A stretch of DNA of 64,000 nt from Candidatus Multivoradales bacterium. Lineage in GTDB: Bacteria; Acidobacteriota; Thermoanaerobaculia; Multivoradales; JAHEKO01. The notes beneath the pieces are model-generated. The model worked only from the letters and a program-made list of their open reading frames with translations. It made no database searches and had not been told where the DNA came from. The DNA lies in assembly GCA_965223855.1 (NCBI GenBank), contig CBDCXM010000003.1:64001-128000 (forward strand), read 5' to 3'. The translations under genes and the position numbers were made by a program. Shown here piece after piece: positions 35,315 through 41,939 of the stretch; the stretch's first letter is position 1; the number at the start of each line of letters is the position of its first letter.

Positions 35315-35620
35315 TCAGTCGCCGAACTTGATCGGCTCCCCGAGCTCCGCCAGCGAGAAGTTCGCCATGATCTGGTGACCGTTGAAGTCGAGAACCCGGA
35401 TGTCCTCGACCCCCCGCAGATCTTCGCTCACGCTCTGGTAGGAATCGGGATAGCGGCCTGCGACCGCATCGAGGTCGACGGCGTAGGCGATGAACTTGTC
35501 GATCCCCTTGTAGCGCAGCTTGGCGACGAGCCGTTCGTCGGTGACTTCGTCGTAGGTCGACAGGGCGAGGATCGGGCCGGTGCCGGTGAAGATCAGGTAC
35601 GCGCGGGGATCGGTCGTCAT
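35315..35620 (-). CDS. Conserved hypothetical cytosolic protein (101 aa)
   Basis: Clean ORF with protein-like composition (YLIFTGTGP, KGIDKFIAY, DIRVLDFNG); -10 box upstream. Confidence 0.7.
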   Translation of the reverse strand: MTTDPRAYLIFTGTGPILALSTYDEVTDERLVAKLRYKGIDKFIAYAVDLDAVAGRYPDSYQSVSEDLRGVEDIRVLDFNGHQIMANFSLAELGEPIKFGD

Positions 35621-35659
35621 CTGCCGACGAGCTTATCGGCTGGGGATAAGCTGTCAACA

Positions 35660-36487
35660 ATGGAAGAGTTCGCCTCGGACGCCAAGCCTGCCGTCGTCCT
35701 CGTGAGGACGCAGGAGGAGGGCAACATCGGCTCCACCGCGCGGGCGATGGCCAACATGGGGCTCGAGCAGCTGGTGCTGGTGGCGCCGCAGGCCACGATC
35801 GGCCGCGTGGCGCGCGCCTTCGCGGTCGGGGCCGGCGAGATCCTCGACCGAGCTCGGATCGAGGACGATCTCGAGACGGCCCTCGCCCCGTATCGGCGGG
35901 TCGTCGGCACGACCTCGCTGCGCGGCCGCAGCCTCGGAGCACAGCCGATCACACCGCAGGAGCTGCCCTCTGTGCTCGACGCCGACCCGGCCGGCACGTC
36001 GACGGCGCTCGTCTTCGGTCCCGAGGCGTCGGGGCTCAAGGTCGAGGAGCTCACCCTGTGCTCTCCGTGTGTGCGCATCCCGTGCTCGCCCGTGCAGCCG
36101 ACTCTCAATCTGGCGCAGGCGGTGCTGATCGTCGCCTGGGAGCTTGCCAAGGCCCGCCGGGCGTCAGCGGGACCGGCGTCTGCAGGACGGGTGTCGGAGG
36201 ACGCCGACGAGGGGGACGCATTTCCGCTCGCCTCCCAACGTGAGCTGGCGGGGCTCTTCGAGCAGATGCGGCCGGTGTTGGGAGAGGTCGGCTTCGACCG
36301 CGACGGCTCGTTCGAGACGGTGATGCGGGATCTGCGCCTGCTGGCAGGGAGGGCGAGCCTGACGGAACGCGAGGTCAAGATCCTCCGCGGGATCTGCCGG
36401 CGTACCCGGCGGTCGCTCGAGCAGCGAGGTGCCTCGCAGCTAGGGGAACCCGCCTCCGCAGCGCCCGTCGATGCCGAAGGGGATTGA
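35660..36487 (+). CDS. trmJ: TrmJ/LasT family SPOUT RNA methyltransferase
   Basis: VVLVRTQEEGNIGSTARAMANMG, VFGPEASGL and LNLAQAV motifs. Confidence 0.85.
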   Translation: MEEFASDAKPAVVLVRTQEEGNIGSTARAMANMGLEQLVLVAPQATIGRVARAFAVGAGEILDRARIEDDLETALAPYRRVVGTTSLRGRSLGAQPITPQELPSVLDADPAGTSTALVFGPEASGLKVEELTLCSPCVRIPCSPVQPTLNLAQAVLIVAWELAKARRASAGPASAGRVSEDADEGDAFPLASQRELAGLFEQMRPVLGEVGFDRDGSFETVMRDLRLLAGRASLTEREVKILRGICRRTRRSLEQRGASQLGEPASAAPVDAEGD

Positions 36488-36505
36488 TAAGCTCCCCGGC
36501 CTCTC

Positions 36506-37147
36506 ATGGAACCCGCCGTCGCAGCAGCAGCCTCGCCCTCCGCCGTCGCTTCGACCCTCGCGTCCGACCCCGTCATCGGGGTGGTTCGCACCGACTCGAC
36601 CGATACCGCACGGGATCAGGCGCGGCGCCTTCTCGACACTCCGATCGGCCTCGTCGAAATCACCTTCACGGTGCCTTCGGCTGTCGATCTGGTGCGGGAG
36701 CTGCGCCAGGGCACCGACCTGCCCTGGATCGGCATGGGCAGTGTGACGACCGCGGCACGCGCCCGGGAAGCGGTCGCAGCGGGGGCCGACTTCCTCGTCT
36801 CCCCCAACGCCTCGCCCGAGGTCGCCGCCGTGGCGCACGAGAGCGGCCGCTTCCTGGTGATGGGAGCGCTGACGCCGACCGAGATCGTCAGCGCCAACGA
36901 GCTCGGTGCGCATCTGGTCAAGGTCTACCCGTTGCCCGCGGTCGGTGGCGCCGCCTATCTGCGCACCGTACGCGGGCCGTTGTGGGACATCGACATGCTG
37001 GCCGCAGGAGGTTTCGGTGTCGACGAGATTTCCGACTATCGCGCCGCCGGAGCGCGGGCGTTCGGCATGATGGCCCCAATGCTGCTCGAAGACGACGGCG
37101 CCGCCGCCGGGCGGGCGCTCGCCCTGGCGCGAGGAGAGAGCTCGTGA
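36506..37147 (+). CDS. eda: KDPG/KHG aldolase
   Basis: VEITF, GMGSV, GADFLVSP, GALTPTEI, VKVYP and GGAAYL motifs. Confidence 0.85.
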   Translation: MEPAVAAAASPSAVASTLASDPVIGVVRTDSTDTARDQARRLLDTPIGLVEITFTVPSAVDLVRELRQGTDLPWIGMGSVTTAARAREAVAAGADFLVSPNASPEVAAVAHESGRFLVMGALTPTEIVSANELGAHLVKVYPLPAVGGAAYLRTVRGPLWDIDMLAAGGFGVDEISDYRAAGARAFGMMAPMLLEDDGAAAGRALALARGESS

Positions 37148-37563
37148 CCAACTCGCATCCGCCGCGCCACGTCGTCTTCGATCGGACACCCGAGATCTTC
37201 GCTACCGACAACAACGGCTCGTTCTGGTTGCCGCTCCAGGTAGAGGGGGCGCCGCACGTCGAAACCCACCACTTCGACGAGGTGCGGCTGATGATCTCGG
37301 TCTGGCATCCCTCCAACCAGCGATCGATCGACCTCGACAGCGCCTACGTCGAGCTGCGCGGGCTGATCGATCCCGAGGACGACCACTGGTGCAAGCTGGC
37401 GGAGATCGAGCCGGTCGTCCCCGCCTACTCGGCCGGCGCATCGTTCGACGGCTGGATCGTGCTGCCGATCTTCTCGGTCAAGACGGCGCTCGCCCTCTCC
37501 GGCAGCGGCTTCGCCGGGCGGGCGCGTTTGCAGGCGCGCGCCAGCGGCTACTTCGTTTCCTGA
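37144..37563 (+). CDS. Hypothetical protein (139 aa)
   Basis: GTG overlaps the eda stop (GTGA); GGAG RBS; protein-like composition between co-oriented genes. Confidence 0.65.
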   Translation: MTNSHPPRHVVFDRTPEIFATDNNGSFWLPLQVEGAPHVETHHFDEVRLMISVWHPSNQRSIDLDSAYVELRGLIDPEDDHWCKLAEIEPVVPAYSAGASFDGWIVLPIFSVKTALALSGSGFAGRARLQARASGYFVS

Positions 37564-37580: not shown

Positions 37581-38798
37581 ATGCAGCATCTTCGATTCCT
37601 CGCCGAACTCGCCCGAGAGGCGGACTCGAAGATCGTCCTGCTGATCCTCGACGGTGTCGGCGACCTTCGCACCGAGGCACAGCCACAGACGGCGCTCGAC
37701 CTCGCCTCCACCCCCAACCTCGATGCTCTCGCAGCAAGGGGCGCGCTGGGTCGGATGATCCCGGTGCTGCCGGGAGTCACGCCCGGCTCCGGCCCGGGGC
37801 ATCTCGGCCTCTTCGGCTACGACCCGGCCCTGCCGCAGTTCGACATCGGGCGGGGCGTGCTCGAAGCGCTCGGCCTCGGCCTCGCCTTCGGTGCGCGTGA
37901 CCTCCTCGCACGCGGCAACTTCGCCACCGCGGACAGCGACGGTCATCTGACCGATCGACGCGCGGGCCGGATCCCCACCTCCGAATGCGAGCGTCTCTGC
38001 GCCCGGATCAACGACGCGATCGGCGAGGTTGCGGGGATGAGGGTTCGCGTGGCGCCCGGCGAGAGCCACCGCTTCGTCCTGGTCCTCGAGGGGAGAGGCC
38101 TGCGCTCGGAACTCGCGGACACCGATCCCCAGCAGCTCGGCGTTCCGCCGCTCGCCCCCGAGGCTCAGACCCCCGAGGCCGAGGAAACCGCCGAACGAGT
38201 CGCCGAGGTCGTCGCCGCCCTCGACGCCGTCATCGCCGACGAGCCACAGGCGAACCGGGTGCTCCTGAGGGGCTTCTCGAAGATGCCCGAGATTCCGCAG
38301 ATGCCGGAGCTCTACCGGATGCGCTGCGGCGCCTTCGCCGGCTATCCGCTCTACCGCGGCGTCGCCTCGGCCTGCGGCATGGAGGTGGTCGAGTGCGGCA
38401 AGCACCTCGACGAGGTCGTCGCTGCGGTACGCGAGCGCTGGGAGGACTTCGACTACTTCTTCCTCCACATCAAGCAGACCGACGCCGCGGGCGAGGACGG
38501 CGATCTGCGCAAGAAGGCGGACGTTCTCAAGGAGGTCGACGGCCACCTTCCCGATCTGCTCGCCCTCGAACCGGACGTGCTCGCCGTCACCGGCGACCAC
38601 TCGACGCCGGCGCTGATGGCGGCGCATTCGTGGCATCCGATTCCGCTGCTGCTGGCAGGGCCGCTCGTTTTCGTCGACGAGACTTCGGCTTTCGACGAGG
38701 GGCAAGCGATCCGGGGCCATCTCGGGGTGCTCAAGTCTCGCGAGCTGATGGGCCTGCTGTTGGCCCACGCCGGCAGGCTCGCCAAGTTCGGCGCCTGA
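37581..38798 (+). CDS. apgM: 2,3-bisphosphoglycerate-independent phosphoglycerate mutase, archaeal/ApgM type
   Basis: LLILDGVGD, TPNLD, PGSGPGHL, DRRAGRI, TDAAGEDG, TGDHSTP and HSWHP motifs; GGGAGG RBS. Confidence 0.92.
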   Translation: MQHLRFLAELAREADSKIVLLILDGVGDLRTEAQPQTALDLASTPNLDALAARGALGRMIPVLPGVTPGSGPGHLGLFGYDPALPQFDIGRGVLEALGLGLAFGARDLLARGNFATADSDGHLTDRRAGRIPTSECERLCARINDAIGEVAGMRVRVAPGESHRFVLVLEGRGLRSELADTDPQQLGVPPLAPEAQTPEAEETAERVAEVVAALDAVIADEPQANRVLLRGFSKMPEIPQMPELYRMRCGAFAGYPLYRGVASACGMEVVECGKHLDEVVAAVRERWEDFDYFFLHIKQTDAAGEDGDLRKKADVLKEVDGHLPDLLALEPDVLAVTGDHSTPALMAAHSWHPIPLLLAGPLVFVDETSAFDEGQAIRGHLGVLKSRELMGLLLAHAGRLAKFGA

Positions 38799-38813
38799 CC
38801 CTACTCGCGGGGA

Positions 38814-38981
38814 GGCGAAGAGAGATCCTGGCGACTCAGCAGGGGGCTCTTCGCCGGGGCGACAAGTAGGAATCCGCAGTCAGAAGTCGATGGCGCCCCA
38901 GGCGAAGCGCAGGGAGCCACAACGCCATCCTCCGACCGATGGCTCCCGGCCCCTGGGGAGTCGCCAGGATCTCTCTTCGCC
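38814..38981 (+). ncRNA. Putative structured element, copy A (long basal stem + three-way junction); family unknown
   Basis: Perfect 24-bp inverted repeat 38814-38837/38958-38981 enclosing stems CTTCGCC/GGCGAAG and GGGAGCC/GGCTCCC; homologous to copy B. Confidence 0.55.
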
Positions 38982-39058
38982 GTTCGGTCTCGGGCTGAAG
39001 CGTTGACGAGGCTGAACTCGGCGTTCGCTGCTCGCGCCAACCTCGGAGACTCGAAGCC

Positions 39059-39223
39059 GGAGGACAGAGACGCCAAGGGTCGCCAGGGGCCGGGAGCCGT
39101 CAGTCGGTGGGCGGTGGACCGGCTCCCTGCGCTTCGCCTCGGGCGCCACCGTTGCAGGACTGCAGGGGTCCGAGTGTCGCCCTGGCGAAGAGCCCCCTGG
39201 CACCCTTGGAGCCCCTGTCCTCC
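39059..39223 (-). ncRNA. Putative structured element, copy B (inverted relative to A)
   Basis: Reverse complement matches the core blocks of copy A at 24/25, 27/28 and 16/16; basal stem diverged but still paired. Confidence 0.55.
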
Positions 39224-39306
39224 TGCGATCGACGCACCGCAGCAGTTCCCTGCCCACGCCGCTTCGCGTGGGAACCTCCTCAGCGAGGGGGTGTAGAAAA
39301 CGCGGT

Positions 39307-39861
39307 CTACCGGAAGCCGCGCCGCAGTTCCTGGCGGAACGTGGTGAACGCGTCCTCTCCGTAGAGGACGACGACCACCCGGTCGAGCTTGGTGCCGCCC
39401 TGCAGGTAGCGGTGGATCTCCGTGAGGGTGACGCGGGCACAGCGGTCGAACGGGAAGCCGAAGGCGCCGGTCGAAATCGCCGGCAGGGCGATCGACTTGA
39501 GACCGTGGCGGTCGGCGAGAGCGAGCGACGCCCGGACCGCGGAGGCGAGCTTGCGATCTTCGTCACCTTCGCCCTTCTTCGGGCCGACGGCATGGATGAC
39601 GTGGCGCGCGGAGAGCTCCCCGGCGCCGGTCAGCACGGCCGTGCCTACAGCGGTTCCACCGATGCGGTCGCATTCGTTCTGGATCGCCTCGCCGGCCTTC
39701 TTGAGAATGGCGCCGGCGACTCCTCCGCCGAGCTTCAGCTCTTCATTGGCGGCATTGACGATGGCATCGACCGTCAGCTCGGTAATGTCTCCTTCGAGGA
39801 GCTCGAGCTGGGCCGAATCCATCCGGATGGTGATATGTCGGGTCTCGGTCGTCTGAGCCAT
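39307..39861 (-). CDS. Macro domain protein (ADP-ribose/O-acetyl-ADP-ribose processing, YmdB-like)
   Basis: GDIT, DAIVNAAN, GGGVAGAI, VIHAVGP and PAISTGAFG motifs. Confidence 0.92.
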   Translation of the reverse strand: MAQTTETRHITIRMDSAQLELLEGDITELTVDAIVNAANEELKLGGGVAGAILKKAGEAIQNECDRIGGTAVGTAVLTGAGELSARHVIHAVGPKKGEGDEDRKLASAVRASLALADRHGLKSIALPAISTGAFGFPFDRCARVTLTEIHRYLQGGTKLDRVVVVLYGEDAFTTFRQELRRGFR

Positions 39862-40019
39862 ACAGCACTACTCTCCCCACGTCTGGCGCGGTCGATTTCG
39901 GGGCCCGGAGGAATCTCAGGGCAGAACGCTGAGTGTATCAAGGCTCGGCGAAGTCGAAAAATCCCCCTGGGCAAGCCTGTCTTTGCGCGACGCACGGCCG
40001 CAGGTAGACTCCGCTCGCC

Positions 40020-41939
40020 GTGCTGACAGAACTCAAGCAGGAATTGCGTCACCACGTGGCCCGGCGCGTTCGGGAGCTCTACGACCTCGAGCATGAGCCG
40101 GTGGTCGAGGTGCCGCCGCGCCGTGATCTCGGGGACTTCGCCTTCCCCGTGGGTCTCCACCTGGCGCGAGAGCTCAAGCGCAACCCGCGCCAGATCGGCG
40201 AGGAGATCGCGAACGGCCTCGAGCTGCCCGACATCGTCGTCGAGACCCGGGTGGAAGGGGCGGGCTACGTCAACGTCTTCCTCGATCGTTCGCGGATTGC
40301 GGCGGGACTGCTCGAAGCGCCTGTCCTCGAGAAGCCGGGCGAGCCGCTGCCCAAGGTGGTGGTCGAGCACACGAACATCAACCCCAACAAGGCGGCGCAC
40401 ATCGGCCACCTGCGCAACTCGGTGCTCGGGGACGTGCTGGCGAAGGTCCTCCAGACGCTCGGGCACCCGGTCGAGATCCAGAACTACATCGACGACACCG
40501 GCGTTCAGGTCGCTGACGTCGTCGTCGGATTCTGCGACCTGCGTGGGATGGGTGCCGACGATATTGCCGCGCTGCCGGAGCCTTTCGACTACACCTGCTG
40601 GGATCTCTACGCCGAGGTCGGCCGCTGGTACGAGGAGGATCCGACGCGCCAGGAGCTGCGTCGAAGCACGCTCCACGAGCTCGAGTCGGGCGAGGGGGAA
40701 CGGGCAGAGATCGGCCGGCTGGTAGCGAGCCGCATCGTGCTGCGCCATCTCGCGACGATGGCGCGCCTCGGGATCGACTATCACCTTCTGACCCACGAGA
40801 GCGCGATCCTCGAGCTCGACTTCTTCGCCGACGCCTTCGAGCGGCTGAAGGAGAGCGGCGCCGTGCGGCTCGAGACCGACGGCAAGAACGAAGGATGCTG
40901 GGTGATGCCGCTCTCCCAGAGCGAGGAGTTTCAGGGCCTCGAGGACCCCGACAAGGTGATCGTCCGCTCCGACGGCACCGTCACCTACGTCGGCAAGGAC
41001 ATCGCCTACCAGATGTGGAAACTCGGGGTCCTGGGGCGGGACTTCGGCTACCGCTTCTGGGACGAGGCCAAGCTGTGGCAGACCGTCGCCGACGGCGTGG
41101 TCGAGCACCCCGAGTTCGGGGGCGGCCACACGGTCATCAACGTCATCGACGCGCGCCAGAGCTACCTGCAGAAGATCGTGCGCGCCGGCGTCGAGGCGGT
41201 CGGTCACCCGGAGGAGGCGGAGCGCTCGATCCACTTCGCCTACGAGTTCGTCTCGCTCTCCGCCGCCACGGCGCGGCAGCTCGGCTTCCTCGGCGACGAC
41301 GACGAGGGGGAGAGCCTCGAGATGTCGGGCCGCAAGGGGATCGGAGTCAAGGCGGACGATCTGATCGACCAGCTCGAAGCGAAGAGCCGGGAAGAGATCG
41401 CGAGCCGCAACCGCGACCTCGCGGACGAAGAGCTCGACGCCCTCGCTCACGACATCGCGGTGGCGGCGATCCGTTTCTTCATGACCAAGGCGACCACGAC
41501 CCGCACCATCGCCTTCGACATCGACGAGGCGCTCGCCTTCGAGGGGGAATCGGGCCCCTACCTGCAGTACTCGATGGTGCGGGCGCGCAACATCCGGCGC
41601 AAGCTCGAGGAGGCCGGGCTCTCCTCAGACGTCACCGGCGGCGAGATGGCGGCGCTGGCGCCCGAGGTGTGGAGCGACGACCTGTGGAATCTGGTGCTGG
41701 CGGTCGGGCACTGCCAGGAGAAGGTCGCGGCGACCGGTGAGACGCTCGAGCTGTCGATCGTCGCCCGCCATGCGCTCGACCTCGCGCAGCAGTTCAACGG
41801 GCTCTACCACAAGCACCCGATCCTCCACGAGGAGGACGAGGCGCTGCGAATCGCGAGGCTCGGGGTCACCCGGATCTTCGGTCGCGGCCTCGCCGCAATG
41901 ACTGAGCTGCTCGGCATCCCGCTGCCGCAGCGGATGTAG
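40020..41939 (+). CDS. argS: Arginine--tRNA ligase
   Basis: VEHTNINPNKAAHIGHLRN, MSGRKG and GPYLQYS motifs. Confidence 0.95.
   Translation: MLTELKQELRHHVARRVRELYDLEHEPVVEVPPRRDLGDFAFPVGLHLARELKRNPRQIGEEIANGLELPDIVVETRVEGAGYVNVFLDRSRIAAGLLEAPVLEKPGEPLPKVVVEHTNINPNKAAHIGHLRNSVLGDVLAKVLQTLGHPVEIQNYIDDTGVQVADVVVGFCDLRGMGADDIAALPEPFDYTCWDLYAEVGRWYEEDPTRQELRRSTLHELESGEGERAEIGRLVASRIVLRHLATMARLGIDYHLLTHESAILELDFFADAFERLKESGAVRLETDGKNEGCWVMPLSQSEEFQGLEDPDKVIVRSDGTVTYVGKDIAYQMWKLGVLGRDFGYRFWDEAKLWQTVADGVVEHPEFGGGHTVINVIDARQSYLQKIVRAGVEAVGHPEEAERSIHFAYEFVSLSAATARQLGFLGDDDEGESLEMSGRKGIGVKADDLIDQLEAKSREEIASRNRDLADEELDALAHDIAVAAIRFFMTKATTTRTIAFDIDEALAFEGESGPYLQYSMVRARNIRRKLEEAGLSSDVTGGEMAALAPEVWSDDLWNLVLAVGHCQEKVAATGETLELSIVARHALDLAQQFNGLYHKHPILHEEDEALRIARLGVTRIFGRGLAAMTELLGIPLPQRM

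Follow-up and report, generated by a model that had tools for sequence, protein, structure and literature searches.

A structured interspersed repeat with a covarying three-way junction in Thermoanaerobaculia-labelled Acidobacteriota

Described repeats and the copies between two convergent genes

The REP/BIME elements and REPINs of Proteobacteria are high-copy, GC-rich, extragenic and palindromic sequences that are concentrated at the 3' ends of genes and between convergent genes, that are arranged as inverted pairs or tandem arrays or mixed with other modules into mosaics, and in which the folding of one strand matters; the element described here shares all of these properties. It differs from them in size and architecture, full elements being 143–183 nt long (median 163.5) and built around a three-way junction whereas a REP is a hairpin of 20–40 nt. 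The GTAG/CGTC tag that defines a REP, according to the abstract of PMC3733652, is absent from the element, whose 5' flank motif, where present, is instead approximately CGGTSCCA. Furthermore, unlike in REP/RAYT systems, no gene for a cognate Y1 transposase is flanked by copies of the element, and its stem sequence is free between subfamilies while its internal loops are conserved.

MITEs, the pneumococcal repeats BOX, RUP and SPRITE, and the ERIC and Correia elements resemble the element in being non-coding, 100–200 nt long and closed by a long stem that is formed by terminal inverted repeats. Like them it is also multi-copy, over-represented between convergent genes and without a transposase of its own, and for BOX, RUP and SPRITE the convergent-gene enrichment is read as parasitic by Croucher et al. 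(PMC3049150). As with MITEs, presence or absence of the element varies between relatives at orthologous sites. The ends of a MITE are conserved in sequence, copying the end of an IS, and make target-site duplications. The ends of the present element, in contrast, differ completely between subfamilies with pairing kept, the conserved part being internal; no target-site duplication was seen at ends that are themselves undefined, nor a parent IS among the arm matches listed; and, unlike in MITEs and BOX-type repeats, covariation extends over a whole order.

The ends of IS200/IS605 elements and the attC sites of integrons are folded single-strand recombination substrates. The element is like them in that a strand-specific fold is conserved rather than a sequence, in that a few extra-helical or loop bases are invariant and identity of terminal sequence is unneeded, and in the short motif (approximately CGGTSCCA) that stands just 5' of the stem in several subfamilies. 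Unlike them, it has no adjacent TnpA, TnpB or integrase, and its copies lie in both orientations within short distances, with no replication-strand bias seen in the coordinates; nor, unlike attC sites, do they lie in cassette arrays. The element works most like REP/BIME, ERIC, BOX-type repeats and MITEs, from all of which it differs in that its terminal sequence is free and its internal junction is fixed and branched, a layout that, with its variable ends and fixed junction and loops, is the reverse of the classical MITE.

Two copies of the element, A and B, were recognised in a window of 64,000 nt (the whole stretch of DNA analysed), where both are contained in the 508-nt spacer between convergent genes for an apgM-like phosphoglycerate mutase and a macro-domain protein (Table 1); the start codon of the former is uncertain, its ORF being open from position 37389. 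The first-pass annotation had described two inverted copies with near-identical core blocks (24/25, 27/28 and 16/16) and loops of 26 and 22 nt. The sequence is as described, the blocks match in the alignment of A(+) with B(-), which has a column identity of 83%, and the loops are as had been stated. Within copy A, 38814-38845 is complementary to 38950-38981 (32 nt, 94%), within copy B 39056-39090 is complementary to 39192-39226 (35 nt, 77%), and between the copies 38840-38864 forms an inverted block with 39175-39199 (25 nt, 96%, that is, 24/25). Both copies fold into a 24-bp basal stem, a 6-bp helix (P1b, which covaries across the family) and a junction with two arms; the basal stem of copy B contains three G–U pairs, one mismatch and one bulge. 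In copy A the helices of arm 1 close a 32-nt loop (38862-38893) containing the family-conserved G-N-A-G, and the arm 2 loop reads CCUCCGA at the place where the family consensus is A-G-U-C-Y.

Table 1. Positions of the two window copies, their parts and flanking genes, and of the third copy in the same genome (R1 and R2 are the first and second covariance models, built from three sequences and from 33 matches, respectively)
Feature	Position	Strand	Remarks
apgM-like gene, cofactor-independent phosphoglycerate mutase	37602..38798	+	Pfam PF10143 1.7e-40, PF01676 1.8e-35
Copy A, whole element, 168 nt	38814..38981	+	basal stem and three-way junction
Copy A, covariance model match	38826-38969		160.9 bits with R1, 119.4 bits with R2
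Copy A, basal stem 5' arm, 24 nt	38814..38837	+	perfect pairing with 38958-38981
Copy A, helix P1b 5' strand CAGGGG	38840..38845	+	junction-proximal; partner 38950-38955
Copy A, arm 1	38846..38910	+	helices GC/GC, CTTCGCC/GGCGAAG, GGGGCG/CGCCCC
Copy A, arm 2	38912..38947	+	GGGAGCCA/TGGCTCCC hairpin, 20-nt loop
Copy A, basal stem 3' arm	38958..38981	+	
A–B spacer, 77 nt	38982..39058	.	separates the 3' ends; copies tail-to-tail
Copy B, whole element, 165 nt	39059..39223	-	architecture as copy A
Copy B, covariance model match	39071-39211		127.1 bits with R1
Macro-domain protein gene	39307..39861	-	Pfam PF01661 2.3e-38
Third copy	G000 contig C8:189182-189364 (L005 about 1463-1645; L032 1483-1665)		between two + strand genes

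A small GC hairpin (CCCACGC/GCGTGGG) lies at 39244-39263 between the macro-domain gene and copy B, ~45 nt downstream of the stop codon of that gene on the minus strand, and may be the gene's own 3' structure. Three long ORFs nearby, 39774-41450 (-), 35617-36591 (-) and 36484-37563 (+), have no Pfam match at E <= 0.001, and some of them may be spurious frames, given the GC-rich DNA.

The conserved fold and the strand that forms it

Folding of the two window copies gave the three-way junction in each, at energies far below those of shuffled sequences: -111.1 kcal/mol for copy A against -73.6 ± 4.6 in 200 shuffles (z = -8.1), and -114.6 kcal/mol for copy B against -84.4 ± 4.4 in 200 shuffles (z = -6.8), with 0 of 200 shuffles folding as well in either case. 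The first-pass annotation had held that G–U pairs limit the fold to the plus strand of A and the minus strand of B. This is borne out for copy B, whose three basal-stem G–U pairs favour the minus strand (-110.3 versus -105.8), but not for copy A, which has none and whose reverse complement is slightly more stable (-114.9 versus -108.9), so that the strand of A is set only by its homology to B and to the rest of the family. Copies A and C (the third copy in the genome) fold about equally well on both strands, and folding energy alone was therefore discarded as a guide to strand.

When 33 copies of the family were aligned by fitting to the model, pairing was found in 92.9% of cells, compared with 64.0% in shuffles; 38 of the 39 pairs are changed on both sides; and the covariation score is 0.678, whereas shuffles reach 0.164 and partners displaced by 1–3 columns about 0.1. 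A model-fitted alignment leans towards the structure to which it was fitted, and two independent checks were therefore made. APC-corrected mutual information among 99 distinct copies places modelled pairs at 24 of the top 25 ranks, the sole exception being one base pair that extends arm 2; it contains no loop–loop contact or covarying pseudoknot, and the idea of a loop–loop pseudoknot, having no support there, was dropped. A sequence-only MAFFT alignment of 60 copies analysed with RNAalifold recovers the three-way junction, with 33 of 35 pairs compensated. Compensatory double substitutions had originally been claimed between the basal stems of A and B. Those stems, together with that of the third copy, are unalignable, and at this level the claim falls, but compensation is convincing in the wider family, where the terminal stem sequence is completely different between subfamilies with pairing kept.

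Among unpaired positions, conservation is seen at the A that precedes GCGC and at the G-N-A-G of the loop in arm 1, at GCGCAGG in the junction, and at A-G-U-C-Y in the arm 2 loop. In addition to the motif 5' of the stem, several subfamilies have C/A-rich 3' flanks, and some have additional outer helices.

The strand that folds can be read from non-Watson–Crick pairs. In the modelled helices G–U leads A–C only modestly (48 versus 31 among 3251 cells), whereas in the outer stem, which is scored by no model, there are 23 G–U against 2 A–C, at least a dozen of the G–U pairs coming from different subfamilies; in G028, a high-copy genome, three U–G pairs recur on one arm in the copies listed. One defined strand therefore folds. 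This result upholds the earlier proposal of selection on a single-stranded fold, for which the strong covariation also speaks; it argues against a purely duplex or cruciform role and does not separate RNA from single-stranded DNA.

A nucleoid or supercoiling role has been proposed for REP/BIME elements, and a double-stranded DNA site of that kind, either a cruciform or a protein-binding site that organises the nucleoid or supercoiling with no single-stranded form, would comport with a long near-perfect palindrome between convergent genes, with the mosaic clusters that the repeat forms with other modules in G028, with the nearly equal minimum free energies of the two strands in copies A and C, and with an orientation that is indifferent to gene direction. 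We consider it very unlikely, because a duplex-binding site would conserve sequence and not pairing, and because the outer-stem G–U excess and the U–G pairs confined to one arm in G028 mean that only one strand pairs fully.

The element matches no described RNA family, consistent with the first-pass annotation, in which it had gone unrecognised. Rfam 15 gave, for window positions 38600-39450 at E <= 10, only VA RNA (17.6 bits, gathering threshold 62) and BcKCsr2 (14.3 bits, threshold 40), and for another eight members, at E <= 1, nothing but two miRNA-precursor matches at noise level, far below gathering; ribozymes, Acido-1, Acido-Lenti-1, HEARO, 6S, SRP and Y RNA were thus rejected as identities, there being no score at or near a gathering threshold. 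In the literature on repeats of Acidobacteria and Thermoanaerobaculia such an element is described in none of the titles and abstracts listed. The structured ~165-base repeat family is previously undescribed and is of the structured interspersed-repeat kind. These results also bear on the proposal that it is a catalytic or retro-mobile RNA, that is, a self-cleaving or self-processing ribozyme or the template of a reverse transcriptase encoded elsewhere. Small ribozymes are often carried on repeats, and a three-way junction whose junction and loop bases are invariant and whose stems are free in sequence, present in high copy and with mobile-like behaviour in a family unlike any known RNA, would suit that habit. 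It is nonetheless very unlikely in our estimate: the Rfam models detect no known catalytic core, there is no covarying pseudoknot or loop–loop contact, and G–U pairs, at 48 of 3251 cells, are rare for an RNA.

Distribution, insertion sites and gene context

BLAST and R1 revealed one further copy in the window's genome, giving three in total. Its 31-bp basal stem is unrelated to that of A or B, and two inner helices carry compensatory changes; it is followed by a small hairpin (GCACGCTGTAACAGCGTAC) that has no U-tract. R1 matched 14 of 61 related genomes. With R2, and with the window's genome included, matches were obtained in 38 of 45 genomes of its family (f1) and in 63 of 151 genomes of the order, representing 32 of 64 genera, but in only 1 of 114 genomes of the class outside the order and 0 of 138 of the phylum outside the class; family f8 has matches in 17 of 21 genomes, and in the window's own genus only 1 of 4 other genomes matches, weakly. 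To judge from these sequence matches, the family is restricted to a single order of Thermoanaerobaculia-labelled Acidobacteriota. When species, each represented by one genome, were scanned with a motif, 80 loci were obtained, of which the model confirmed 53, with record titles that are all Acidobacteria, Acidobacteriota, Thermoanaerobaculia or 'uncultured bacterium'. The 27 others, mostly from other phyla (they include Streptomyces, Kitasatospora, Sorangium, Pseudomonadota, Chloroflexi, one Pyrinomonadaceae and one Thermoanaerobaculia record), received no confirmation from the model and were taken as chance. One alignment row comes from an unpublished genome (G005), on which no claim depends.

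The number of copies varies widely, from zero in families f6 and f2 to high values in G028, G018, G062, G030 and G146. Scored R2 matches per matching genome in the family range from 1 to at least 70, and the strict model filters under-count diverged subfamilies: with a copy from the genus g27 as BLAST query, ~7–18 further copies were found in each of five g27 genomes in which the model saw 1–5. The terminal-arm motif was counted 97 + 83 times in G028 and its reversed control 0 + 1 times, which implies ~90–100 copies. The covariance-model search suggested in the first-pass annotation thus uncovered a multi-copy family with copy numbers of 1 to about 100, and the family searches rule out that the pair is a chance palindrome or was duplicated privately. 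In an abundant uncultured lineage of soil and sediment, the family takes up as many as about 100 intergenic sites per genome, and the covariance model would allow this otherwise unexplained intergenic DNA to be labelled.

Comparison of orthologous sites shows gain and loss of copies. Of four same-genus genomes, three retain the convergent mutase and macro-domain gene pair, the fourth having no match to the mutase query, and the spacers of the three are ~55, 36 and 150 nt without the element (best model E = 0.21), compared with 508 nt in the window; it follows that A and B were inserted in this lineage. Four runs of one sample, possibly the window's source, have DNA contigs across the locus, none of them with a skipped or alternative allele, and no RNA run containing the stretch was found. 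At one orthologous site in the genus g16 the element is present in G028 and absent from G065; at another, G028 and G067 are both filled, with different arm 1 subfamilies, G019 holds a fragment on the opposite strand, and three other assemblies break there. As a separate matter, the mutase–macro spacer of G004 (L105) contains two direct copies of a ~50-nt stretch (GGCGCGCTGGCGCTGTATCCC.GGGGCCGGCTCCGCCGG), a repeat unlike the present one at the position that A and B occupy in the window.

Gene context was assessed with crude GC3-based ORF calls, by which 59 of the 99 distinct copies could be placed, the copies being related and hence non-independent. On this basis 33 of the 59 lie between convergent genes, 21 between genes of the same direction and 5 between divergent genes (p = 4e-7 versus 25% convergent); 8 more are inside a called ORF, probably through mis-calls. 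The family inserts chiefly into intergenic DNA 3' of genes, where genes are sparse. The first-pass annotation had noted that both copies read in the sense direction of the genes they follow. That is correct in the window but is not a rule of the family, since same-direction contexts comprise 11 sense and 10 antisense copies; in convergent contexts the element is nearer the gene to which it is antisense in 23 of 33 cases.

The arrangement of neighbouring copies is also varied. Inverted pairs occur in at least eight other places, mostly head-to-head, and same-strand tandem arrays of two or three copies are present at L082, G222:C4:227465-227793, G033:C1:21365-21751 and L074; the tail-to-tail, sense-to-neighbour layout of the window is thus one arrangement among several. 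The array at L082 (G026:C13) consists of three copies at 201-nt spacing, each preceded by a common leader of ~45 nt. In closed genomes the orientation, as read from the coordinates, switches within a few kilobases, which speaks against a strong replication-strand bias. Many copies are located at contig ends. In g27, the segments flanking a copy at L219-L224 (G070, G079, G097, G113 and G167) compared with L206 are mutually inverted in 3 of 5 cases, and a second inverted copy of 89% identity lies 0.8-2.3 kb away in two genomes; from the inverted flanks it follows that the repeats mark inversion breakpoints there. The copies are accordingly of practical consequence, as they break short-read assemblies as well as marking such breakpoints.

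The copies of G028 are set in neighbourhoods that are BIME-like mosaics of separate repeat families. Octamer arrays (CCCTAAGCC/CCCTACGCC and variants; CCCTAMGCC) are observed 60-250 nt upstream of each copy (L083-L102, L199), and at least three other repeat modules of ~100-195 nt adjoin the three-way-junction unit; octamer arrays of the CCCTAY type are candidates for the target motif. The neighbouring module of ~195 nt also occurs alone, and one module is found alone in G019, G035 and G067.

Mobility, host use and the search for an enzyme

Three possibilities had been left side by side in the first-pass annotation: a non-coding RNA, a 3'-UTR or processing element, and a REP/MITE-like mobile unit. 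The evidence favours the last, in the form of a non-autonomous repeat, on account of its multi-copy nature, its patchy copy number, the empty orthologous sites and the enrichment between convergent genes. The family is most likely a small parasitic mobile element, and A and B are probably independent insertions of such a non-autonomous repeat, one that spreads by way of a folded single-stranded intermediate and is recognised in trans. In the mechanism that we propose, the intermediate would have a defined polarity and would be either an RNA copy or single-stranded DNA; its junction and loops, and not its terminal sequence, would be recognised by a protein whose gene lies elsewhere in the genome; and the inserted copy would be a passenger, which, if transcribed by read-through, would fold into a highly stable RNA structure where the neighbouring messages end.

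The main competing explanation, which we judge unlikely, is that the element is a structured RNA useful to the host, acting within neighbouring messages or alone, whose copies arose by ordinary duplication. Possible roles are those of a barrier to exonucleases at 3' ends, an element that separates convergent genes as terminator or insulator, or a platform for a loop-reading RNA-binding protein. The conserved loop and junction bases (A-GCGC, G-N-A-G, GCGCAGG and A-G-U-C-Y) on a scaffold that covaries across the order would be expected of such an RNA, as would strand-specific folding and a location at gene 3' ends, both window copies following the adjacent gene directly and in its sense direction. 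The retention of the element in most genomes of several families (37 of 44 in f1, 17 of 21 in f8) would also fit a host function, and so would the almost flawless stems of the three diverged copies in the window's genome. Were the copies used by the host, they would provide Acidobacteria with a large repertoire of RNA structures at 3' ends. Against this stand the lack of an orientation preference in same-direction contexts and the proximity to the antisense gene in most convergent ones, the copy number of 0 to about 100 among close relatives with empty orthologous sites, and the signals around the element. A scan of A and B for signals found neither a sigma-70-like promoter nor a U-tract preceding or following either copy, and a consensus scan for U-tract terminators gave one weak internal match and none at the 3' end of the element, where the flanks are C/A-rich.

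The distribution of mutations bears on the same question. It was analysed in a small sample, 20 copies from a single genome (G028) that carries roughly 100. Diversity there is 0.089 in paired columns compared with 0.233 in unpaired columns, whereas private variants are equally frequent in the two classes (26 in 84 paired columns, 23 in 80 unpaired). Among 19 private single changes to Watson–Crick pairs, 12 break the pair (3 A–C and 9 transversions) and 7 give G–U; in contrast, all five of the single-side variants shared between copies give G–U. Older variants, common to several copies, therefore respect the fold and recent ones do not. In G028, private mutations fall in loops and disrupt stems equally often, and shared ones keep pairing, so that the fold is selected in the lineages that multiply and not at each inserted copy, which decays; this is a further point against use by the host. 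Taken with covariation over the whole order, the decay of single copies points to a step of mobility that reads shape and not sequence.

No mobilising enzyme was found for the element, and no ORF lies within it or regularly beside it. A RAYT-type partner, which had been suggested among possible neighbours, is not supported: a Y1 (HUH, IS200-type) transposase (PF01797) is encoded in 4 of 5 high-copy genomes but not in G146, where at least 21 copies are present, and none of the 10 Y1 loci has a repeat copy within 1.5 kb. A composite transposon in g27, with one gene between two inverted copies, was rejected, the genes of the region being housekeeping genes (a carbamoyltransferase, an RlpA-like lytic transglycosylase and adenylosuccinate lyase). 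No direct repeat was evident by eye where 20 G028 copies and 98 family copies, the exact limits of which are undefined, come to an end, and the filled and empty sites that were compared, being only 75-88% identical and within other repeats, gave no readable target-site duplication. Among the 100 of 180 arm matches listed for G028, the pairs that could be matched are ~143 or 187 nt apart, and none of kilobase spacing stood out.

The reading of the family as a parasitic repeat could be taken a step further, to a substrate or RNA component of an undiscovered structure-specific mobility system, in which a protein or ribozyme would read the junction and its fixed loop bases on one strand, and copy or move the unit independently of terminal sequence. 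We regard this extension as quite unlikely; if true, it would amount to a new mechanism of bacterial transposition or retro-mobility, distinct from the sequence-end DDE, HUH, serine and tyrosine systems. Identification of the enzyme that spreads the repeat could bring to light a mode of spread new among small DNA or RNA parasites. The Y1 genes themselves were observed as open frames of 230-366 aa with PF01797 (L209-L218), 1-4 per genome in four genomes of the family, and, being unlinked to the three-way-junction repeat, they may serve another repeat family.
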